Below are positions 9,110 to 53,659 of a stretch of DNA of 53,659 nucleotides, piece by piece (within the stretch, counting starts at the first letter, position 1; each line of letters opens with the position of its first letter). A program made the translations under genes and the position numbers. The notes beneath the pieces are model-generated. The model searched no databases, was not told where the DNA came from, and was given only the letters and a program-made list of their open reading frames with translations. The stretch lies in contig DAIMZM010000003.1 of the NCBI GenBank assembly GCA_036733985.1, positions 1 to 53,659 of the forward strand. The letters run 5' to 3'. Source of the stretch: Bacillota bacterium. GTDB lineage: Bacteria > Bacillota > Dehalobacteriia > UBA4068.

Positions 9110-10501
9110 ATGATGCATCAATACGCACTGAACGGCTATCATATCGTGCTGGATACCTGCTCCGGCTCCGTACATGCCGTAGACCCGCCGGCCTATGACC
9201 TGATCGCCCTCTACCCGGATAAGACCGAGGCGGAGATCATCGCGATCCTGCTGGACAAATACCAAGGCCAGGCGGATCTGGACGGGGATGAACTCCATGC
9301 CTGCTACCAGCAGGTGGCCGCCCTGGAAAAGGCGGGAAAGCTCTTCACCCCCGACCATTACCAGCCTCTGGCCGGGGAATTCAAGAACCGTTCCCAAGAG
9401 GTGAAGGCTCTCTGCCTGCATGTGGCCCATACCTGCAATCTGAACTGCGCCTACTGCTTTGCCAGCCAGGGCAAATACCAGGGGGAGCGGGCCCTGATGC
9501 CTTTTGACGTGGGCAAACAGGCCCTGGATTTCCTGATCGCCCATTCCGGCAGCCGCCGCAACCTGGAAGTGGATTTCTTCGGCGGCGAGCCCTTGATGAA
9601 CTGGCAGACGGTGAAAGACCTGGTGGCCTATGCCCGCTCCGTGGAGCAGCAAAAAGGCAAGAACTTCCGCTTCACCCTGACCACCAACGGCCTGCTCATC
9701 GACGACGAGGTCATTGATTTTGCCAACCGGGAAATGAGCAACGTGGTGCTGAGCCTGGACGGGCGTCAGGAAGTCCATGACCGGCTGCGCAAGGATTACG
9801 CGGGCCAGGGCAGCTGGCAGCGGATCGTGCCCAAATTCCAGCGGCTGGTTCAGGCCCGGGGGGACAAGGACTATTATATCCGGGGCACCTTTACCCATGC
9901 CAACCCGGATTTCCTGGAGGATATCCTGGCCATGGCCGAGCTGGGCTTCACCCAGCTGAGCATGGAGCCGGTGGTCTGCGCCCCGGAGGACCCGGCGGCC
10001 CTTACCGAAGAAGATTTGCCCATCTTGCTGGAACAATACGAATTGCTGGCCCAAGAAATGCTGCGCCGCCGCCGGGCAGGCCGGCCCCTGAACTTCTACC
10101 ACTATATGATCGACCTTTCCGGCGGCCCCTGCGTTTACAAGCGCATCTCCGGCTGCGGCTCCGGCACGGAATACTTAGCCGTCACCCCCTGGGGCGATCT
10201 TTACCCCTGCCATCAATTCGTGGGGGAGGAAGCCTTTAAGCTGGGAAATATCTGGGAAGGTGTGACCAACGCCGCCCTTCAGGAGCAGTTCCGGGGCTGC
10301 AATGCCTATGCCAGACCGGATTGCGGGGACTGCTGGGCCCGGCTCTACTGCTCCGGCGGCTGCGCCGCCAACGCCTACCATGCCGCCGGCTCGATCCTGG
10401 GCGTTCATGACTACGGCTGCCGCCTGTTCCGCAAGCGCATGGAATGCGCCATTATGCTGAAAGTGGCGGAAGAACTGGAACAGGGTCCGGCCGGCCAATA
10501 A
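9110..10501 (+). CDS. scfB: SCIFF radical SAM maturase (thioether-forming, SPASM domain)
   Basis: Radical SAM CNLNCAYC motif, C-terminal Cys-rich SPASM region (CGSG..CHQ..CGDCWARLYCSGGCAAN), and position immediately after scfA. Confidence 0.9.
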   Translation: MMHQYALNGYHIVLDTCSGSVHAVDPPAYDLIALYPDKTEAEIIAILLDKYQGQADLDGDELHACYQQVAALEKAGKLFTPDHYQPLAGEFKNRSQEVKALCLHVAHTCNLNCAYCFASQGKYQGERALMPFDVGKQALDFLIAHSGSRRNLEVDFFGGEPLMNWQTVKDLVAYARSVEQQKGKNFRFTLTTNGLLIDDEVIDFANREMSNVVLSLDGRQEVHDRLRKDYAGQGSWQRIVPKFQRLVQARGDKDYYIRGTFTHANPDFLEDILAMAELGFTQLSMEPVVCAPEDPAALTEEDLPILLEQYELLAQEMLRRRRAGRPLNFYHYMIDLSGGPCVYKRISGCGSGTEYLAVTPWGDLYPCHQFVGEEAFKLGNIWEGVTNAALQEQFRGCNAYARPDCGDCWARLYCSGGCAANAYHAAGSILGVHDYGCRLFRKRMECAIMLKVAEELEQGPAGQ

Positions 10502-12621: not shown

Positions 12622-12816
12622 AGCGCCGGAGCCCGCTCCAGCCGGTCTTTTTCCCGGACTGCCGCCATGGCCCCGGCCCGGGAAAGGGGGCCCGCCAGGG
12701 GACAAGCCGGGGGCGTCCGCTTCAGCCGCCCGCCCCCCGGCCGGGGAAAGGAGTGGCGGAATAGTTGGGTTTTCCAGCGGAATGATGCTATACTAAGATC
12801 AACAGAGTGGGCGGAG

Positions 12817-13488
12817 GTGAGGCAAACGGCGTATTATACCTATCTGCTGCGCTGCGGGGACAACAGCCTCTATACCGGCATCACCACGGATCTGGGCCGC
12901 CGCTTCGCCGAACACCAGGGGCAAGGGGGCAAAGGCGCCAAATATACCGCCGCCCGCCGGCCCCTGCGCTTTGAGGCAGCCTGGCAATCAACGGGCCGGG
13001 CCGCGGCCTCCCGGCTGGAACAGAGCCTGAAAGCCCTGAGAAAGCCGGACAAGGAACGGCTGATCCAGGGCCAAATCCCCGCCGGCCTGGATCTTTCGCC
13101 TTATATCAGGATTCATCTTACCGACAATGGAGGGATCGTCATGCTGTTTGTTTGCTATGCCAGATGTACCACCTGCCAAAAGGCCCGGGACTTCCTGGAC
13201 GCCAGGGGCGCGGCCTATGTCTTCCGCGATATTAAAACCGAGCCGCCCAGCGAGGCGGAGCTCCGGGCCTGGCAGCAAAAGAGCGGCCTGCCCCTGAAGC
13301 GTTTCTTCAACACCAGCGGCCTGCAATACAAGGCCCTGGGCCTCTCGAAAAAGCTGCCCAGCCTGACCGGGGACGAGCAGTTTGCCCTGCTGGCTAGCGA
13401 CGGGATGCTGGTCAAGCGCCCGATCCTGGCGGCTGAGGATTTTGTCCTGGTGGGCTTTAAACCGGCGGAGTGGGAAGAAAAACTGTAG
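12817..13488 (+). CDS. GIY-YIG nuclease-family (UPF0213-like) domain reading without a stop into an ArsC/Spx-family thioredoxin-fold domain
   Basis: From GTG 12817: MRQTAYYTYLLRCGDNSLYTGITTDLGRRFAEHQ (GIY-YIG). The frame continues into MLFVCYARCTTCQKARDFL..LVKRPIL (ArsC family). There is no in-frame stop between the two. Confidence 0.55.
   Translation: MRQTAYYTYLLRCGDNSLYTGITTDLGRRFAEHQGQGGKGAKYTAARRPLRFEAAWQSTGRAAASRLEQSLKALRKPDKERLIQGQIPAGLDLSPYIRIHLTDNGGIVMLFVCYARCTTCQKARDFLDARGAAYVFRDIKTEPPSEAELRAWQQKSGLPLKRFFNTSGLQYKALGLSKKLPSLTGDEQFALLASDGMLVKRPILAAEDFVLVGFKPAEWEEKL
13141..13488 (+). CDS. ArsC/Spx/MgsR-family protein (alternative independent start inside the fused ORF)
   Basis: GGAGGGATCGTC-ATG at 13141 is a near-ideal RBS and spacing. 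The 115-aa product is the normal size for this family and has an N-terminal CxxC (CTTC). Confidence 0.7.
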   Translation: MLFVCYARCTTCQKARDFLDARGAAYVFRDIKTEPPSEAELRAWQQKSGLPLKRFFNTSGLQYKALGLSKKLPSLTGDEQFALLASDGMLVKRPILAAEDFVLVGFKPAEWEEKL

Positions 13489-13709: not shown

Positions 13710-13889
13710 ATGGGGCAGTCCTTGCAGTTCTGTTTCCATGATCCGAACCCGGCGGCGATAACCGCCGATTTCCTGCTGCGCCTGCTGGTACAAGCCAACC
13801 AGCCCCGGCTGGAAGCCTTGCTGCGACAGGCGGCGGCAGACCTGACGCCGGCAAGCCCCGCCCCAGGCCGGGACGGGGGCTGCCCATGA
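13710..13889 (+). CDS. 59-aa hypothetical protein, translationally coupled (ATGA) to the recombinase gene; possible recombination directionality factor
   Basis: Below the track cutoff. AGGAGG is upstream. Product MGQSLQFCFHDPNPAAITADFLLRLLVQANQPRLEALLRQAAADLTPASPAPGRDGGCP. Its stop TGA overlaps the recombinase ATG at 13886. Confidence 0.4.
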   Translation: MGQSLQFCFHDPNPAAITADFLLRLLVQANQPRLEALLRQAAADLTPASPAPGRDGGCP

Positions 13890-15413
13890 ACATCGCCGCC
13901 TATTGCCGGGTGTCCACAGATAAGTCCGACCAGCTCAACAGCTTAGAAGCCCAGAAGCGCTTCTTCAGCGACTATACCCGGAAGACCGGCCACACCCTGG
14001 TGCGGCTTTACGCGGACGAGGGGCTTTCCGGCACCCGGACGAAAAACCGCGAGCAATTCCTTTGCCTGATGCGGGACGCGGAAGGGGGCCTCTTCGACCT
14101 GGTGGTGGTGAAGGACATCTCCCGCTTTGCCCGGAACACCGTCGATTTGCTGCAAAGCATCCGCAGGCTGAAAGCCCTGGGGGTGGAAACGCTCTTCCTC
14201 ACCGCCAATATGACCAGCATGGGCAACAGCGAATTCGTGCTGACCATCTTCGGCGCCCTGGCCCAGGAGGAGTCCGCCAATACCAGCAAGCGCATCAAGT
14301 TCGGCAAAAAAATCAATGCGGAGCGGGGCCGGGTGCCGAATTTGGTCTTCGGCTATGACAAAACCCCCGGCGACTATTTCAACCTTACCGTCAACCCGCA
14401 GGAAGCGGCAGTGATCCGCCAGATGTTCCACTGGTATGTGGACGAGGGCTGCGGCGGCGCGAAGATCGCCAACCGCCTGAACCAGCAGGGGATCAAGACC
14501 AAGCGGGGCTGCAGCTGGTCCCAGAACGCGGTCTGCCGCATCCTTACCAATGAACTCTATATCGGCAGGATCATCAACGGCAAGCAGGAGGTGGCGGACT
14601 TCCTCACCGGCCAGCGGGCCGAAAAAGGGGAAGCAGACTGGCTGGTGACGGAACGCCCCGGCCTGGCCATCGTGGACGGGAAGCTCTTCGCCAAGGCCCG
14701 GCAGATAATGGCTGAGCGGGGACAAGCCTTCCAGGCGGCGAAAGAGCGGCAGAGCAATAAGCACCTGTTCTCCACCCTGATCAAGTGCCGGGAATGCGGC
14801 CGGTCCTTCCGCCGCACCGTACGCACTTACAAGCATACCTATGTGCGCTGGGTCTGCTCCGGCCATAACGGCAGAGGCGCGGAAAGCTGCGGGAACGCCG
14901 TCACCGTGGACGAAGACGCGCTGATCGCCGCCCTGAACCGCTATTTCGCCGATATGCTGCGGTCAAAGAAGAACGCCGTCAGCCAGGCGGTGAATGAGTT
15001 CAACCGGGTCTGCCAGGCGAAATGCCGGGACGCGCAGTATGAGAAGGCGCTCCGGGCTAAACTCAGCCGCCTGCAGAAAACCCGGCAGAAGTACATGGAC
15101 ATGTACGCCGACGACCTGATCAGCCGGGAAGCGCTGAACGCCAAGATCGGCGGCAGCAAGCAGGAGGCGGAGCGGCTGGAAAACGAACTGAAGCTGGCCG
15201 CCTGCCATAGCGCCAAAGGCGGGCAGCTGGAAACCCTGATCCGCAGCGCCTTCGCCACCGTTGAAAGCATCGCCGACGCGGGCCAGCTGACCAATGCCCA
15301 GCTGAAGCAGATCATCCAGCGGATCGAGGTGGACAAGGCCGGCCGGGTGGATATCTACCTGCGCCGGCTGGGTGATCCAGGCCTGGATGAAACCGTTCTC
15401 ATTCGCGACGGCC
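13710..15413 (+). mobile_element. visible right-hand end of an intervening element inserted in spoIIID (left boundary not identified in this window)
   Basis: The recombinase stop codon (15419..15421) lies inside the first recognisable spoIIID codons. A GTAC core at 15414..15417 is flanked by partly symmetric arms (CGTTC 15394-98 / GAACG 15432-36). Confidence 0.6.
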
Positions 15414-15421
15414 GTACATAA
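13886..15421 (+). CDS. large serine recombinase (SpoIVCA/TnpX-like: resolvase domain, recombinase domain, zinc ribbon, coiled coil, DUF4368-like tail)
   Basis: MNIAAYCRVSTDKSDQLNSLEAQ (catalytic Ser context), VKDISRFARN, Zn ribbon CRECGRSF..WVCSGH..CGN, and a C-terminal KQIIQRIEVDKAGRVDIYL tail like that of SpoIVCA. Confidence 0.92.
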   Translation: MNIAAYCRVSTDKSDQLNSLEAQKRFFSDYTRKTGHTLVRLYADEGLSGTRTKNREQFLCLMRDAEGGLFDLVVVKDISRFARNTVDLLQSIRRLKALGVETLFLTANMTSMGNSEFVLTIFGALAQEESANTSKRIKFGKKINAERGRVPNLVFGYDKTPGDYFNLTVNPQEAAVIRQMFHWYVDEGCGGAKIANRLNQQGIKTKRGCSWSQNAVCRILTNELYIGRIINGKQEVADFLTGQRAEKGEADWLVTERPGLAIVDGKLFAKARQIMAERGQAFQAAKERQSNKHLFSTLIKCRECGRSFRRTVRTYKHTYVRWVCSGHNGRGAESCGNAVTVDEDALIAALNRYFADMLRSKKNAVSQAVNEFNRVCQAKCRDAQYEKALRAKLSRLQKTRQKYMDMYADDLISREALNAKIGGSKQEAERLENELKLAACHSAKGGQLETLIRSAFATVESIADAGQLTNAQLKQIIQRIEVDKAGRVDIYLRRLGDPGLDETVLIRDGRT

Positions 15422-22678: not shown

Positions 22679-22851
22679 CTTAAAACGACCAAAGGCTCGC
22701 CGCCTTTGGAAACCGCATTCTGCTTTATGATTTGATATGATGCATTTAGCGACGTTTTTATCAAGAAGCGAGAGCCAATTGCAAACTTCATTTTGAATAC
22801 ATTTAAAGTTCTTTTGCTTCTTTTCTTTCAAGAAAAGAAGGGTTTTAAAGG
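22679..22851. repeat. AT-rich inverted hairpin-pair repeat, locus A
   Basis: Right unit ATTTAAAGTTCTTTTG-CTTCTTTTCTT-TC-AAGAAAAGAAG-GGTTTTAAAGG (22801-22851). Left inverted unit with a GC stem: CTTAAAACGA-CCAAAGGC-TCGCC-GCCTTTGG-AAACC (22679-22716). Confidence 0.8.
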
Positions 22852-28684: not shown

Positions 28685-28797
28685 TTTAAAACCCTTCCTT
28701 TCTTGTTAAGAAAGGAAGCTAAAGAACTTTAAATTAATCAAATTATGATTTATAATAGGCAAAAGCCGGCTAGGTTAAAAGAAGAATTGTTTTAAAG
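28685..28797. repeat. AT-rich inverted hairpin-pair repeat, locus B (right unit is a half-copy)
   Basis: TTTAAAACC-CTTCCTTTCTT-GTT-AAGAAAGGAAG-CTAAAGAACTTTAAAT (28685-28734) and AAAAGAAGAATTGTTTTAAAGG (28776-28797). Confidence 0.75.
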
Positions 28798-34033: not shown

Positions 34034-34234
34034 CCAAAACCTTTCTTTTCTTGTAAGAAAAGAAAGAAAAGAACTTTAAATGGCTGTTTGATTGCGGCAG
34101 CTAGTTATACTTAGTATTTAAAATCCTTTAATAAATAAAAGTAATTATTAAAGAAAGTCGCTATGCATAGCGTAAAATCCAACTATAATATAAATTTTCT
34201 TGGTTCTTCTTTTATAAAAGAAGAACGGTTTCCC
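34034..34234. repeat. AT-rich inverted hairpin-pair repeat, locus C
   Basis: CCAAAACC-TTTCTTTTCTT-GT-AAGAAAAGAAA-GAAAAGAACTTTAAAT (34034-34081) and AAATTTTCTTG-GTTCTTCTTTT-ATA-AAAGAAGAAC-GGTTTCCC (34191-34234). Confidence 0.8.
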
Positions 34235-37977: not shown

Positions 37978-38226
37978 GTTAGAACCCTTCTTTTCTTATA
38001 AGATTAAAGAAGCAAAAGAATTTTAACTTTATGCAAAGTCACGGCCTGCTGGGATTGAGCCTCTCCGTTTACTTTAAGATTAAGATTTTAAAACTAAAAA
38101 TTTAAAAAGAATAATAAAGAATGATAATGATATTTAGGAAAGAAAATAAATGGGTTAAAGTGAAAACCGGATACTTTTAAACTTTTCTTGGTTCTTCTTT
38201 TTTTAAAAGAAGAACGGTTTTAAACC
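37978..38226. repeat. AT-rich inverted hairpin-pair repeat, locus D (largest, about 145-nt extremely AT-rich core)
   Basis: GTTAGAACC-CTTCTTTTCTTATAAGATTAAAGAAG-CAAAAGAATTTTAAC (37978-38030) and TTTTAAACTTTTCTTG-GTTCTTCTTTT-TTTA-AAAGAAGAAC-GGTTTTAAAC (38175-38226). The terminal TTTAAA supplies the stop codon of the gene at 38220. Confidence 0.8.
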
Positions 38227-38957
38227 CCGGCAGGATCAGCGCCCTGACTGGGAAAAAAGGGGCATTGCCGATGAAGGCAGTCGGGGTTGCCGCTAAACTG
38301 GCGGCAAAGATAGGGGCGGCCGCTGTCGCCAAAAACGCCTAACGCCGCTTTCGCCACCTGGATGGCGGTAACGGCTTCCCGCTTACAGCAGCGGGCGCCG
38401 CCCCGCTTGCCAATCTCCAGCAGGGCCAGGGCTGTCAATTCATTGGCCCGGCCCCGTTCCGCCAGGGAAAGGGGGGTGGTTTGATGGATGACCGCGTAAG
38501 CGATGCCCAGGCCCACGGCTGCGCCGCAGGCCCCATGGCTGCCGCAGGCGCCCCCGGGAACCGCCTTGCCCCGGGCAATGGCCACCTTGATTGCCAGCCG
38601 GTTTTGCCGGCCCAGGCTATTGCCATAAGCCGCCACCAGCACCGCCGGGACAATGCTATGATATTCCGGCCCATGCATATGCAGCATGGGCAGCGCGAAG
38701 ATTTCCAAAGCCAATTCCAGGGGGTCCGTGGCCCTGCTCTGCCAGCAGATTTGCTCCACCAGGGCCAGGATATCCCGGCGATGGCATTCATCGCAGACAT
38801 AATGGCCATTGGCGCAAAAAACCTGGGCAGATTCGGTTTTGCCGCAATAATAACAGCTGACCTGAAAGGGCTTGTCCGGGCTGTAAATCAGCTCCCCGCC
38901 GCAGACCAGGCAGCCGGAGAGATAGCCGCTGCCCGGGCAGCAAGCATTGTTCGCCAT
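38220..38957 (-). CDS. cysteine-rich hypothetical protein (DUF5714-like; N-terminal Cys/His zinc-ribbon-like motifs)
   Basis: CLVCGG..CYYCGK..CANGHYVCDECH at the N-terminus, GACGSHGACG mid-protein, CCKRE and C..C at the C-terminus. The family assignment is from memory only. Confidence 0.5.
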   Translation of the reverse strand: MANNACCPGSGYLSGCLVCGGELIYSPDKPFQVSCYYCGKTESAQVFCANGHYVCDECHRRDILALVEQICWQSRATDPLELALEIFALPMLHMHGPEYHSIVPAVLVAAYGNSLGRQNRLAIKVAIARGKAVPGGACGSHGACGAAVGLGIAYAVIHQTTPLSLAERGRANELTALALLEIGKRGGARCCKREAVTAIQVAKAALGVFGDSGRPYLCRQFSGNPDCLHRQCPFFPSQGADPAGV

Positions 38958-44633: not shown

Positions 44634-44662
44634 TTGACAGTTGGTTCAGGCTTTGATAGAAT
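44634..44662 (+). promoter_or_regulatory. sigma-A promoter followed by an approximately 250-nt leader of the CNNM transporter gene
   Basis: TTGACA, 17 nt spacer, TAGAAT. Confidence 0.55.
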
Positions 44663-44696: not shown

Positions 44697-44857
44697 AACC
44701 GTTCTTCTTTTGCCAGGGGCAGCGCAGAGACTTGAGCCAAAACCGGTTTACCCTTATTTACCCGCGCAAGCCGCTTTTGCGTTGGTGGATAAAGCGCAAA
44801 TGGGATTGTTTGAGTTCCCGGCCCCGCTGGTCCGGGGAAGGACGGTTTTAAAGTTTT
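44697..44857. repeat. degenerate member of the hairpin-pair repeat family, locus G (half-units only)
   Basis: AACCGTTCTTCTTTT (44697-44711) and GACGGTTTTAAAGTTTT (44841-44857) match the arm and terminal motifs of loci C and D. Confidence 0.5.
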
Positions 44858-46363: not shown

Positions 46364-46470
46364 GATAAAACCGTTACTTTCTTGAAAGAAAGTAACGCAA
46401 AGAACTTTCAATTTATTCAAAGTAACTGCTGAGCATGGTTTGGGGTCCCGAAAGAAGAACGGTTTTATAA
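46364..46470. repeat. AT-rich inverted hairpin-pair repeat, locus E (right unit is a half-copy)
   Basis: GATAAAACC-GTTACTTTCTT-GA-AAGAAAGTAAC-GCAAAGAACTTTCAAT (46364-46413) and GAAAGAAGAACGGTTTTATAA (46450-46470). Confidence 0.75.
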
Positions 46471-46918: not shown

Positions 46919-47428
46919 TCAGCGCTGGCGGCCGGCGGCGCTGTTCATCCGCCGGGCCAGTTCCATCAGGCCTTCCGGGTCGCCGCCGGACTCCATCCGG
47001 CTGATCAGCTCCAAAATGAACTTCTGATTTTCATCGGAAAGCAGTGAACCGTACTGCTGCAGGATCTGCTTCAGATCCTCCACATTACGCACAGCCCCGG
47101 GCGGCGCCATGCCGTCCGGGCCCTGCTGGGGCTGGGGTTGGGCCTGGTTAAAGCCGGGACGGTTCTGGGCTTGGGCTTGAGGCCCCGGCTGCCGCTGCCG
47201 GGGATCCTGCGGCGCTTGGCGGCGGTTTTGCTGCTGCATCGGCGGCCTTTGGCCCGGTTGGGGTCTTGGGCCCGGCCCGGACTGCTGCCGGGGTTGCGGC
47301 CCCTGGGGGCGGCCCTGCTGTTGCTGCATCGGCGGCCTTTGGCCTGGCCTGGGCCCTGGCTGCGGTGCTGGGGCAGGCCGCTGGGACTGCTGTCCCGGCC
47401 CCGGGTTTCGTCCTCTATTATTGAACAT
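46919..47428 (-). CDS. Gln/Pro-rich low-complexity protein with structured C-terminal ~60 aa
   Basis: Good RBS (AAAGGAGGAAAGCCT-ATG). The N-terminal ~110 aa are repeats of the PGQRPPMQQQ/GPQPRQQ type. The C-terminus VEDLKQILQQYGSLLSDENQKFILELISRMESGGDPEGLMELARRMN is non-repetitive. Confidence 0.6.
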   Translation of the reverse strand: MFNNRGRNPGPGQQSQRPAPAPQPGPRPGQRPPMQQQQGRPQGPQPRQQSGPGPRPQPGQRPPMQQQNRRQAPQDPRQRQPGPQAQAQNRPGFNQAQPQPQQGPDGMAPPGAVRNVEDLKQILQQYGSLLSDENQKFILELISRMESGGDPEGLMELARRMNSAAGRQR

Positions 47429-47478: not shown

Positions 47479-48297
47479 CTAATAGCGGTACCAGCCCGCC
47501 GCCCGCTGCCGGGCGGTTTCATAATCCGGCAGATCCAGCCCGGCCCGGGGGCAAGGGGCCTGGCAATAGGGGCAGGGGGAGACATAGCCGGCGGCTTCCG
47601 CCGGCGCCGGCTCCGCCGCGCCCGGGCAGCTGGCGCCCTCCCCGGCCGGCCCGGGGCCGCCGGGCTGTCCCGCGCCACCCATGCCCCCCAGATTGCCCAG
47701 GCTGGAGAGCATATTCAGCATAGACATCCAATCCATACCGGAAGCGCCGGCAAATCCATTGGTAAAACCATTGGCATTGGCCTGGTCCCCCGCCGCTTCC
47801 GGCCCCCGCTCCGGCGCGGGTTCAGGGGCCGGTTCCGGGATGGGGATATCCTGGAACAAGGCTTCCTGCACCGGCTCCGGTTCAGACTCAGGGAAGACCG
47901 GCTCCGGCTCTGGGGGCTGTGCTTTGCCCGGCTTCCGGTTAGGACGGGGCATCTGGGACATCATCCCGGCCAGATTGGAAAGCTGGGAAAGATCCGGGCC
48001 GCCGCTGCCGCCCAGGCCCTGGAGCATAGACAGCATGGCCAGGGAATTGTTGTTGCCGCCCTGATTACCTGGGTTCGCCGGGCCGCCCAGGCCGCCTAAA
48101 CCGCCCAGGCCGCCTAAGCCGCCTAAGCCGCCTAAACCCCCCAGGGCGGACAGCATGCCCAGAGGATTTCCCCCCCCGCCGCCTAATCCGCCCAGGCCGG
48201 ACAGCATGCCCAGAGGATTTCCCCCCAAGCCGCTTTTTCCGCCCTGGCCGCCTAAGCCGGACAGCATATTCAGCATGTTTCCGTCCAAAATGCCCAT
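47479..48297 (-). CDS. Gly/Leu-rich low-complexity protein with acidic Pro/Glu linker and C-terminal Cys motif
   Basis: MGILDGNMLNMLSGLGG.., (GGL)x7, GNPLGMLSxLGG x3, a PEPEP linker, C-terminal SPCPYCQAPCP. Coding is supported by length, in-frame repeats and its position upstream of the Q/P-rich gene. Function unknown. Confidence 0.55.
   Translation of the reverse strand: MGILDGNMLNMLSGLGGQGGKSGLGGNPLGMLSGLGGLGGGGGNPLGMLSALGGLGGLGGLGGLGGLGGLGGPANPGNQGGNNNSLAMLSMLQGLGGSGGPDLSQLSNLAGMMSQMPRPNRKPGKAQPPEPEPVFPESEPEPVQEALFQDIPIPEPAPEPAPERGPEAAGDQANANGFTNGFAGASGMDWMSMLNMLSSLGNLGGMGGAGQPGGPGPAGEGASCPGAAEPAPAEAAGYVSPCPYCQAPCPRAGLDLPDYETARQRAAGWYRY
48082..48144. repeat. in-frame 9-bp tandem repeat (7 units, GCCGCCYAR) encoding the (GGL)n tract
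   Basis: gccgcccag gccgcctaa accgcccag gccgcctaa gccgcctaa gccgcctaa accccccag. A 28-bp direct repeat GGACAGCATGCCCAGAGGATTTCCCCCC also occurs at 48148-48175 and 48199-48226. Confidence 0.85.
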
Positions 48298-51985: not shown

Positions 51986-52137
51986 TTTAAACCCTTTCTT
52001 TTCTTCGAAGAAAAGAAACAAAAGAATTTTAAACTTATACCATGTTACCTTGCAGCTGACACCGGCAACTACCCATTAAAGTTTTCTCGGTTCCTCTTTT
52101 TGAGCTATAGCTCAAAAAGAGGGAACGGTTAAAAAAA
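51986..52137. repeat. AT-rich inverted hairpin-pair repeat, locus F (right unit has the longest stem)
   Basis: TTTAAACCC-TTTCTTTTCTT-CG-AAGAAAAGAAA-CAAAAGAATTTTAAAC (51986-52034) and TTAAAGTTTTCTCG-GTTCCTCTTTTTGAGC-TATA-GCTCAAAAAGAGGGAAC-GGTTAAAAAAA (52076-52137). Confidence 0.8.
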
Positions 52138-52156
52138 TTCAGCCCATACCCAGGAA

Positions 52157-52188
52157 AGCGCCCGCTTATACCGCGGGCGCTGTTTTTT
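52157..52188 (+). terminator. intrinsic terminator
   Basis: AGCGCCCGC-TTATACC-GCGGGCGCT followed by GTTTTTT. Confidence 0.8.
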
Positions 52189-52208: not shown

Positions 52209-53354
52209 CTAGACCCGTCGGCTGACCAGGGCTTCCACAGCGTCGGCCAGGGCGTCCAGATGGGCTTTGGTATTATACCAGCCTGGGGAGACCCGGACCG
52301 AGCCTTCTTCAAAGCTGTCCAGGCTGCGGTGGGCCAAAGGCGCGCAATGATAGCCGGAACGCAGGCAAATGCCGGACTGGCTAAGGAAAGCGGCGGTTTC
52401 CGCGGCGGTGTAGCCCCGCAGGTTAAAGGCCAGCACCGGCACGCGGGGCCGGGGCTGTTCCGGCAGATAGAGGATGACGCCGGGCAGGGCCCTGAGCTTC
52501 TCCGCCAGGGGATCCAGCAAACCCATGCTGTAGCGGTAAAGATGATCCACGCCGATCTTTTCCACAAAGTCCAGGGCAGCGCCCCAGCCGGCAATGCCCA
52601 CCGTATTCAGGGAACCGGCTTCCAAATGCTCGGGATAATGGCTGGGCTGGGTTTTCCGCTCGCTTTGGCCGCCGGTGCCGCCGCTGATCAGGGGCGTAAG
52701 GCGCAGGCCCTCCCGCACATAGAGGGCGCCGATGCCGCTGGGGCCGTAGAGAGCCTTATGGCCGGGCAGGGCCAGCAGAGCAATGTCCAAAGCCGCCACA
52801 TCCAAGGGCAGCAGGCCCACGCTTTGGGCCGCGTCCACCAAAAGGGGGATGCCCCGGCTTTTGGCCAGGCCGGCGATCTCCGCCAGGGGCTGCACGCTGC
52901 CGCAGACATTGGAAGCATGGCAAAGCACAATCAGGGCGGTATGGGGCTTGATCAGCCGGGCCACGGACTCCGGGCAAAGATAGCCGGCCTGATCCGCCGG
53001 GGCCCGGCTCAGGGAAATACGGCCGCCGCAGGCCAGGGCATGGAGGGGACGGAACACCGCGTTATGCTCCATGCCGGAATAGATCACATGGTCGCCGGCC
53101 TGCAAAAAGCCGTAGAGGGCCATATTCAGGCTCATGGTGGCCCCGGCGGTAAACACCACCCGTCGGTGATCCGGGGCATTAATCAAAGCAGCCAGCCGTT
53201 GCCGCACCCGGTCCACCATTTCCGCTGTGCGGCAGGTCATCTCATAGCTGCCCCGGCCCGGATTCGCCCCGTAGCACTCCAAGGCTTCCGCCATGGCCCG
53301 GCCCACCTCCGGGGGCTTGGGCCAGGTGCCGGCGGCATTATCCAGAAATATCAT
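52209..53354 (-). CDS. class V aminotransferase-fold enzyme, cysteine desulfurase-like
   Basis: IFLDNAAGTWP, PLP Lys in ALPGHKALYGP, active-site Cys context RSGYHCAP. ATG 53354 is preferred (GAGGGA 6 nt upstream); 53360 is possible. Confidence 0.82.
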   Translation of the reverse strand: MIFLDNAAGTWPKPPEVGRAMAEALECYGANPGRGSYEMTCRTAEMVDRVRQRLAALINAPDHRRVVFTAGATMSLNMALYGFLQAGDHVIYSGMEHNAVFRPLHALACGGRISLSRAPADQAGYLCPESVARLIKPHTALIVLCHASNVCGSVQPLAEIAGLAKSRGIPLLVDAAQSVGLLPLDVAALDIALLALPGHKALYGPSGIGALYVREGLRLTPLISGGTGGQSERKTQPSHYPEHLEAGSLNTVGIAGWGAALDFVEKIGVDHLYRYSMGLLDPLAEKLRALPGVILYLPEQPRPRVPVLAFNLRGYTAAETAAFLSQSGICLRSGYHCAPLAHRSLDSFEEGSVRVSPGWYNTKAHLDALADAVEALVSRRV

Positions 53355-53473
53355 TCTCATCCCTCGTTTCCGCTGCTCATCAACAAGAAAGCCTGCTGCA
53401 TTATATGCAACAGGCTTTGGGGATGACAATGCCAGGCTATCCGGCAAGGGCGGCCGGAACCGCGGCGGGCGGC

Positions 53474-53659
53474 TCAGCGGATTTTCAAGGTGCGCTCGAT
53501 CTCGGAAATGGAGCGGTCCAGCTGGCTGTCGCTTTTGCGGTTAGACTTGATTTTATCGCAGGCATACATGACGGTGGTATGATCCCGGCCGCCGAAATCC
53601 CGGCCGATCTGGGAGGTGGTGGCCCCCACCAGATCCCGGCACATATACATGGCCACCTG
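53474..53659 (-). CDS. dnaA: chromosomal replication initiator DnaA, C-terminal domain IV only (5' part beyond window)
   Basis: ..VAMYMCRDLVGATTSQIGRDFGGRDHTTVMYACDKIK.. matches the DnaA DNA-binding signature (IAMYL.R.L...SL..IG..FGGRDHTTV). Confidence 0.85.
   Translation of the reverse strand, partial: QVAMYMCRDLVGATTSQIGRDFGGRDHTTVMYACDKIKSNRKSDSQLDRSISEIERTLKIR

Follow-up and report, generated by a model that had tools for sequence, protein, structure and literature searches.

This locus raises the question of what kind of DNA makes up the short AT-rich islands in an otherwise GC-rich stretch of 53,659 nt from a Bacillota bacterium (contig DAIMZM010000003.1), here called the window. The G + C content of the window is 59%, and seven islands (loci 1 to 7, from left to right) are its lowest dips, with 0.25-0.47 per 200 nt. 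An earlier note, made from the letters alone, had described them as a family of inverted hairpin units with paired stems, resembling bacterial interspersed mosaic elements (BIMEs), hairpin-forming doublets of repetitive extragenic palindromic (REP) sequences (REPINs) or transposable elements of the miniature inverted-repeat type (MITEs). Our analysis supports this description by inverted doublets, tandem arrays, stem covariation and empty sites. The islands probably belong to a REPIN/BIME-like family (MITEs in the wide sense) of non-coding, non-autonomous mobile repeats. The family is new and apparently undescribed, although of a well-known kind; no description of it was found in the literature on MITEs, REPs or REPINs in Clostridia, Ruminococcaceae and Firmicutes.

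Hairpin units in the islands of the window

All seven islands lie where the earlier note had placed them, and the complementary arm pairs that it quoted were correct when the sequence was read again. In its own orientation, a unit consists of TTTAAAGTTCTTTTG, a pyrimidine arm of 10-16 nt, a loop of 2-4 nt, a complementary purine arm, and GGTTTTAAA. Its core is the 15-nt box TTTAAAGTTCTTTTG together with an A/T-rich hairpin of 10-12 bp. Two inverted units form one element, with the boxes inward, the hairpins outward and a poorly conserved spacer between them. Elements in the window are 107-250 nt long. Box sequences were strongly enriched, with seven window matches to TTTAAAGTTCTTTTG at ≤3 mismatches (0.71 expected) and eight to GAACGGTTTTAAA at ≤2 mismatches (0.53 expected); in each case, none of 100 shuffles equalled the count.

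A covariance model (CM R1; 44 positions, 10 pairs) was seeded with five window units and 11 units from other genomes. With the filters off, it detected nine complete units, spread over six of the seven loci of the window; the remaining units are truncated or decayed. Besides its five window seed units, the model found four that had not been part of the seed (28689-28733-, 37982-38027-, 38176-38220+ and 52075-52131+), with E values from 1e-4 to 1e-9. The rest of the window gave nothing convincing; this also holds for its further AT-rich intergenic regions, at 6.6, 17.1 and 27.4 kb, and positions 1-22600 had no hairpin units. The features of the seven loci are the following (bits are CM scores).

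22680..22709, no strand: locus 1, left GC-rich hairpin CCAAAGGC/GCCTTTGG with a TTAAAAC flank; no CM match
22802..22849, + strand: locus 1, complete unit, TTTAAAGTTCTTTTG / CTTCTTTTCTT-tc-AAGAAAAGAAG / GGTTTTAAA; 71 bits, E 7e-12; ~70 nt upstream of yebC
28685..28733, - strand: locus 2, complete unit; 57.4 bits, unseeded; 9 nt past the argD stop codon
28775..28796, + strand: locus 2, truncated right unit (TTAAAAG joined to AAGAATTGTTTTAAA), pyrimidine arm deleted; by sequence reading and a GAATTGTTTTAAA box match
34034..34080, - strand: locus 3, complete left unit; 66.8 bits
34081..34187, no strand: locus 3, AT-rich spacer with no credible open reading frame (ORF), by sequence and ORF inspection
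34188..34234, + strand: locus 3, complete right unit; 52.7 bits; 9 nt beyond the ybeY stop codon
37978..38027, - strand: locus 4, left unit, its stem made irregular by a 2-nt insertion; 49 bits, unseeded; upstream of phoH
38028..38175, no strand: locus 4, AT-rich spacer of 148 nt with no credible ORF, by sequence and ORF inspection
38176..38226, + strand: locus 4, complete right unit; 49.2 bits, unseeded; the outer GGTTTTAAA holds the DUF5714 stop
44697..44714, - strand: locus 5, left-unit remnant (AACC GTTCTTCTTTT GCC), purine arm lost; by sequence reading
44829..44853, + strand: locus 5, right-unit remnant (GGTCC...GGAAGGAC GGTTTTAAAG) in the 5' untranslated region (UTR) of the CNNM gene; by a GGACGGTTTTAAA box match
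46364..46411, - strand: locus 6, complete left unit; 58.7 bits; downstream of the GC-rich terminator of the CNNM gene
46450..46470, + strand: locus 6, truncated right unit (GAAAGAAGAAC GGTTTTATAA); by sequence reading and box match
51986..52033, - strand: locus 7, complete left unit; 65.1 bits; 6 nt past the stop codon of the DUF6449 gene
52075..52135, + strand: locus 7, right unit with an extended stem of 16-17 bp (GTTCCTCTTTTTGAGC / GCTCAAAAAGAGGGAAC); 34.4 bits, unseeded; also recognized as an inverted repeat; a similar stem variant occurs in the metagenome-assembled genome (MAG) RGIG3155

The regularity of the loci is lower than the earlier note had described. It had seen two inverted units at every locus; a complete pair is present at loci 3, 4 and 7 only. 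At loci 2 and 6, a complete unit is accompanied by a 5'-truncated one (28775-28796 and 46450-46470), and at locus 5 there are two decayed remnants in place of two full units. The idea that all islands are built from the same unit fails at the left end of locus 1, where the hairpin CCAAAGGC/GCCTTTGG was unmatched by the CM and is probably not a family unit. Placement strictly between transcription units was likewise too general a claim, because locus 2 splits argD and argF and locus 5 is part of a 5' UTR. Two other statements held. The stop codon of the DUF5714 gene is provided by the terminal repeat of locus 4 (TAA at 38220-38222, inside GGTTTTAAA), and there is no credible ORF inside the elements and no transposase gene, including those for REP-associated tyrosine transposases (RAYTs), in the window.

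As a separate observation, the left hairpin of locus 1 looks terminator-like on the - strand. The segment 22646-22723 (-), with the hairpin CCAAAGGC/GCCTTTGG followed by UCGUUUUAAGG, gave a weak Rfam match to Clostridiales-2 (24.4 bits, against a gathering score of 58.6).

Copies in gut Clostridia and turnover of the elements

The family extends well beyond the window. When 185,579 species, each represented by one genome, were scanned for the exact pattern, 98 stretches were returned, and the true matches were all in gut Clostridia; chance matches in coding DNA of unrelated phyla, which had no hairpin, were dropped. Most of the true matches (56) came from a single MAG, Oscillospiraceae bacterium ABMPRH_156_1 (JAAWCD01). 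About 20 other genomes had 1-5 exact matches each, among them Gemmiger formicilis, whose strain ATCC 27749 carries one copy or more, Subdoligranulum, Candidatus Avispirillum and uncultured Clostridia. The CM gave 204 matches in the carrier loci, whose sampled members ranged in G + C content from 0.29 to 0.61. Coding DNA of the window and of ABMPRH_156_1 is only ~68% identical, and still the unit at locus 1 has a 39-nt core identical to the majority unit of that MAG.

The architecture of a complete element is best seen in ABMPRH_156_1, where the CM found 146 units in 409,958 bp, all between ORFs. Nineteen adjacent pairs were in -+ orientation, with spacers of 26-39 nt, and there was no close +- pair. 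Twenty complete elements measured 102-133 nt, mostly 114-116 nt. When aligned, they have a left unit with five T, a 12-bp stem and CAAAAAGAACTTTAAAC; a spacer of approximately CTGCGC..TTGCCAG..CCGGTAGAAYCAG, with TAGAAYCAG; and a right unit with four T, TTTAAAGTTCTTTTG and an 11-bp stem. This left/right asymmetry is consistent between elements, indicating that they are copies of one master and not independent palindromes. Pairwise identity of the complete elements averages 72% and reaches at most 92%. Box and stem positions are 88-100% conserved, except for the first stem pair, where C-G and G-C alternate, and the spacers are far less conserved than the units. The window copies are the long-spacer form of this element, with the spacer pieces CCGG-TAG and TTATTCAAAGT common to ABMPRH_156_1 and to the nearest relative of the window.

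Solo units and remnants are frequent in ABMPRH_156_1, as they are at loci 1, 2, 5 and 6 of the window. Tandem arrays were found in four of the carrier loci (L083, L030, L073 and L067), with 3-4 elements each in L083 and L030, and other small repeats are nested in the spacers and even in a hairpin loop. No direct repeats or target-site duplications flank the 20 complete elements of ABMPRH_156_1. The ends of the elements of the window lineage adjoin the palindrome TTTAAA, which would hide a TA or TTAA duplication.

Several further repeats accompany the elements. Spacers of the AT-rich elements at seven ABMPRH_156_1 loci (L003, L027, L030, L038, L044, L058 and L059) enclose another, nested hairpin repeat, which is GC-rich (GGCCCGATGAGGTCATCGGGCC, with CTACAG-like flanks). 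At L010, L042, L047, L060 and L098 of the same MAG, a repeated module of ~60 nt, cacttgcttttgcgaagcaaaagcttagtggagtccacaccctttcgggtg, stands in place of the left hairpin, in at least five copies. Locus L183 (1200-1316) has a GC-rich, palindrome-containing insert of ~85 nt nested in a unit hairpin loop, between CTTCCTTTCTT and AAGAAAGGAAG. In MAG RGIG3155, heptamers in tandem, (CAGTTGA)n, directly precede an element on its upstream side (L073, 1500-1565).

The stems vary in sequence and keep their pairing, as the earlier note had proposed from the few arm pairs of the window. In an alignment of 147 units (112 distinct), which was fitted to the CM and so favours pairing, 99.3% of the stem cells were standard pairs and seven of the 10 pairs had changes on both sides. 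The first stem pair was CG in 59 units, GC in 46 and UA in three. All 500 shuffles stayed below the observed pairing measures, as did all slid controls, and the raw unit sequences had the same pairing as the fitted alignment. Left and right units of most elements differ at the first stem pair, each local hairpin being perfect. Within the window, the stems of left and right units do not have the same sequence, so it is the local hairpin that is maintained.

For gain and loss of elements, we compared the window with its closest relative found, a JGI metagenome organism from sample 3300022181 (Ga0228535 contigs; loci L188 and L190). This relative is syntenic over ~30 kb, with identities of 86% for ArgF, 81% for CNNM and 74% for the cysteine desulfurase, and it has the same repeat family also at sites of its own. 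The comparable sites are as follows.

Locus 2, argD-argF: window, 154-nt spacer with a 113-nt element; relative, 39-nt spacer, empty
Locus 3, after ybeY: window, filled; relative, filled
Locus 4, upstream of phoH: window, filled; relative, filled
Locus 5: window, truncated copy; relative, same truncation
Locus 6, CNNM-mazF: window, filled; relative, empty, with alignable downstream sequence
Locus 7: window, two intact units; relative, remnant

The six sites are therefore empty (two), intact (two) or decayed (two) in the relative, which is the presence/absence polymorphism that the earlier note had suggested looking for. In L188, the right unit of locus 5 is better kept (16 bits with the CM), and the ortholog of the left unit of locus 4 has a perfect stem. 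Units at shared sites are 80-82% identical (81% for the right unit of locus 3 and its L188 ortholog), and the neighboring coding DNA is 72-84% identical. The spacers are unlike the units: identity was 0.47 at locus 3, against a shuffled baseline of 0.52, and 0.49 at locus 4, against 0.50, the latter being unalignable. Three orthologous units had compensatory paired substitutions, T-A to C-G in the right units of loci 3 and 4, and C-G to T-A in the left unit of locus 4. Because both stem types are present in both genomes, compensation in situ is here inseparable from copy-to-copy conversion.

Beyond this relative, the elements are patchy. Relatives with a PhoH 64-76% identical to that of the window had no copy around phoH, and the CM found zero units in 80 PhoH loci of other Firmicutes (~640 kb). 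An ancient conserved element at orthologous sites was accordingly rejected for most relatives. The elements appear to be gained or lost as whole pieces in intergenic DNA; they decay to single units and remnants, and amplify locally into tandem arrays.

Candidate explanations for the family

If the elements are mobile repeats, a trans-acting enzyme, its gene lying elsewhere in the genome, would copy them and would recognize the box by its sequence and the hairpin by its shape. Since there is no target-site duplication, the likeliest candidate would be a single-strand-DNA transposase of the HUH/Y1 type (RAYT/IS200-like). Recognition by such an enzyme, and not terminator or promoter function, would keep the box and stem conserved. 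Because the elements occupy the stretches from stop codons to ribosome-binding sites, they are co-transcribed with their neighbors; their hairpins may, speculatively, have secondary effects on mRNA stability or processing.

It is very improbable that the units are ordinary transcription signals, that is, intrinsic (possibly bidirectional) terminators or a portable promoter with a 5' leader. Their position at gene ends and gene starts would suit such signals, and one unit (34067-34040) passed a loose terminator scan. The stems are A/T-rich, however, with no U-tract in either orientation in ABMPRH_156_1 and at most UUUU in the window, and terminator-like sites in the region were no commoner than in shuffles (23 vs 23.5). 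Separate, canonical GC-rich terminators stand beside loci 6 and 7, locus 5 is inside a 5' UTR and locus 2 inside a probable operon. The possibility raised in the earlier note that all copies are ordinary terminators was thus rejected by sequence, the units lacking a U-tract and lying beside bona fide GC-rich terminators. A portable promoter or leader was suggested by the arrangement TAGAAYCAG-TTTAAAG...hairpin-AGAAA-RBS-ATG (RBS, ribosome-binding site) in ABMPRH_156_1, where a TAGAAY hexamer precedes many units, and by a promoter-like site at locus 2, with an inner TTTAAA and a TATAAT 17 nt downstream. In ABMPRH_156_1, the outer end of the unit faces a gene start in 59 cases, 7-34 nt before the start codon, and a gene end in 52, 0-17 nt past a convergent stop codon. 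The side with TAGAAY faced starts and ends at 21:15 and the other side at 12:10, with no bias to starts. This even split, the unbiased TAGAAY side and the lack of a -35 box at workable spacing led us to reject the promoter/leader cassette. A gene-specific cis-regulatory, riboswitch-like RNA was also rejected, as the flanking genes are unrelated housekeeping genes. Rfam 15 had no match at gathering thresholds, and at E up to 5 there were only hairpin-only chance matches (52067-52186). The roles that the earlier note had listed as bidirectional terminator or insulator, regulator site or small RNA gained no support.

Foremost among the rivals is a module of RNA or DNA selected by the host, in which hairpin and box are the binding or processing site of a conserved host protein (a ribonuclease, an RNA chaperone or a nucleoid protein) and copies are kept because they stabilize or separate the flanking cistrons. 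It is compatible with a mobile repeat that has been partly co-opted and competes only as the primary explanation, in which role we regard it as unlikely. What speaks for it is the constraint on the unit: the core is identical across loci of 0.29-0.61 G + C, orthologous units are conserved like coding sequence (0.80-0.82) next to random spacers, stem changes are compensatory, and hairpins so close to stops and starts are certainly co-transcribed. As RNA, a whole ABMPRH_156_1 element is predicted to be able to form a single long duplex (-44.7 kcal/mol, z = -6.8), which could plausibly serve as a substrate of the RNase III type; the window copies are predicted to fold as separate hairpins. Against it, presence and absence differ between close relatives at housekeeping loci, and several copies have decayed in both lineages. 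Selfish repeats typically form such tandem arrays and nested insertions, the units prefer neither starts over ends nor any class of gene, and the relatives without any copy around phoH likewise count against it.

A classical MITE derived from an insertion sequence (IS) with a DDE transposase is less probable still. The units would then be long terminal inverted repeats (TIRs) bound as double-stranded DNA, and a short or palindromic target (TA, TTAA) would hide the duplication. The small size, the lack of coding capacity and the terminal inverted repeats of ~41-50 nt fit this, and the TTTAAA at the ends in the window lineage could mask a TA or TTAA duplication; around the 20 complete ABMPRH_156_1 elements, however, there was no direct repeat. 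Selection on a hairpin within each arm is unexpected for TIRs bound as a duplex; here each local stem is perfect, also in elements whose two arms differ. The 410 kb of the MAG yielded neither an IS whose ends match nor any long multicopy repeat. The unit pattern was also absent from viral contigs, and BLAST against plasmid and phage collections gave no match, though the low-complexity filter may weaken that search.

The mobile-repeat explanation remains the likely one, with several points weighing against it. The search for a mobilizing enzyme was negative: neither the window nor the stretches between distant unit pairs contain a transposase, and tblastn with IS200 TnpA and the E. coli RAYT against 1.5 Mb gave nothing, a weak test. 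As no RAYT or transposase can be linked to the family, the label REPIN is an analogy only. The 410 kb of ABMPRH_156_1 also contain no long multicopy repeat. No full-length copies are identical, and their maximum identity of 92% gives no hint of transposition in the very recent past. Divergence between the empty and the filled sites prevents exact boundaries from being drawn, so that insertion is indistinguishable from precise deletion. The identity of the 39-nt core, at ~68% identity of gene DNA, exceeds the conservation of typical REPs and could point to a host function. High-copy REPs have been reported only for RAYT groups 2 and 3, with Escherichia and Pseudomonas as representative genera (PMC5581495).

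Other candidates were set aside. ORFs between distant unit pairs, examined as a possible autonomous partner, are ordinary genes, and the multi-copy flank seen in Hadza MAGs is only 100-340 nt long. The DUF5714 gene beside element 4 was rejected as a transposase, its product being a Cys-rich protein. Integron attC sites were dropped, since the copies occur genome-wide in housekeeping operons, and a palindrome-associated transposable element (PATE) of the IS200/IS605 type was dropped because the units are strictly inverted and not direct.

Known systems resemble the family to different degrees. PATEs and IS200/IS605 elements have subterminal hairpins, no target duplication and no usual TIRs, and their structure, with a short guide, is recognized as single-stranded DNA. 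The likeness lies in the hairpins near both ends and the missing target duplication. In IS200/IS605, however, the end hairpins are on the same strand and direct, whereas the units here are strictly inverted by their asymmetric box and loop, and no TnpA or TnpB gene was found between the unit pairs or, by the same weak tblastn search, in 1.5 Mb. The ERIC/IRU repeats of Enterobacteria and the Correia repeats (CREE/NEMIS) of Neisseria are imperfect palindromes of ~100-150 nt in transcribed intergenic regions. They reach hundreds of copies in some genomes and few in relatives, form long RNA hairpins that ribonucleases can process, and, in the case of ERIC, are conserved in sequence while their locations differ between species. 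They insert at TA with duplication, and their arms are not known to be perfect hairpins with covarying stems. By description, the family resembles them in size, palindromic form, placement in transcribed intergenic regions and patchy copy number; it differs in having no TA duplication that we could see, no sequence similarity to them and no match in Rfam or other databases.

The closest likeness is to the REPINs and BIMEs of Pseudomonas and Enterobacteria. Shared features are short, imperfect palindromes with conserved flanks, extragenic location and high copy number; inverted doublets at preferred spacings with a less conserved spacer; and decaying singlets, tandem clusters, absence of target duplication and maintained hairpin complementarity. 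A patchy distribution, with whole elements present at some sites and absent at others, also fits the published accounts. REPs are typically GC-rich, in contrast to the A/T-rich polypyrimidine/polypurine stems of the present units, and REP sequences are usually lineage-specific, whereas the core described here is conserved across genera in loci of widely different G + C content. REPINs and BIMEs are also mobilized by RAYTs, for which neither the window genes nor the weak tblastn search gave a candidate. In the published account of REPINs, a pair of REPs in inverted orientation encloses a spacer of lower conservation, and singlets that decay occur along with clusters (PMC3337134); REPINs and REP clusters are also the subject of PMC2817692. 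RAYTs are usually single-copy, and their group 1 occurs in Clostridia, not linked to high-copy repeats (PMC5581495).

These comparisons leave room for a more tentative proposal, to which we give a low probability: in Oscillospirales, a population of repeats and a single-copy protein acting in trans may form an old partnership, for the most part inherited vertically, with the unit as one of its two halves. The protein partner would be either an HUH/RAYT-like enzyme that has been domesticated or some unrelated binder of hairpin and box. If true, the partnership would explain an A/T-rich core of 39 nt that is identical across loci of such different G + C content next to randomized spacers. Clostridia would then have their first described high-copy system of the REPIN-like kind, or else an undescribed mechanism of mobilization or host use. 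The elements could also have a role at the RNA level at operon junctions.

High-copy REP/REPIN-type families have received much study in Proteobacteria and little in the phylum of the window, and none was found described for Oscillospirales. With doublets, arrays, covarying stems and conservation across genera, the present family is a tractable case for asking who mobilizes repeats in Firmicutes, and whether such repeats are selfish or co-opted. The finding would gain interest if the mobilizing or binding protein proved to be a RAYT in Clostridia or something new. In practice, the family explains sharp AT-rich islands, which should not be annotated as promoters, terminators or small RNAs, and the CM and consensus can be used to mask or annotate MAGs of gut Clostridia. 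The elements are also a likely cause of contig breaks and of collapsed tandem arrays in such assemblies.

Gene context of the window

The window is ordinary chromosome of a spore-forming, Clostridium-like organism. From yebC, the genes run alr, murT, argD, argF, prfB, an aminotransferase, ybeY, a 7TM-HD protein and phoH. They continue with DUF5714, yqfD, yabP, a two-component system, htrA and a CNNM/CorC transporter, followed by mazF, an ABC transporter, DUF6449 and a cysteine desulfurase. Among these genes there was no transposase, and the only recombinase was a large serine recombinase at 13.9-15.4 kb, distant from all units. This gene (13886-15421, +; Resolvase, Recombinase and Zn-ribbon domains) adjoins an ORF encoding a GIY-YIG/ArsC-glutaredoxin fusion (12667-13488, +), and the two may be an integrated element or a sporulation-type recombinase.

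The Cys-rich DUF5714 gene (38220-38957, -) lies between yqfD and element 4. It is absent from the relative at L188, where the yqfD stop is 26 nt from the same right-hand unit, which places a gene gain or loss exactly at the element boundary. Upstream of CNNM/CorC, a sigma-70-like promoter, TTGACA-17-TAGAAT, is conserved between the window (~44634-44662, +) and the relative (L188, ~9745-9773). The decayed element 5 is within the 5' UTR produced by this promoter.

A segment at 47201-47400 has a G + C content of 0.755 and an AT skew of -0.755. For the adjoining ORF (47479-48297, -), Pfam gave no confident domain and only a weak match, below threshold, to a family of repetitive proteins. In the relative (L190, 8522-11152), dnaA immediately precedes the cysteine desulfurase gene on the upstream side, and rpmH-rnpA-yidC-jag-mnmE-gidA-gidB-parA-parB are close by. 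It is therefore probable that the window, at its right end (52209-53659) with the cysteine desulfurase gene, adjoins the replication origin region.

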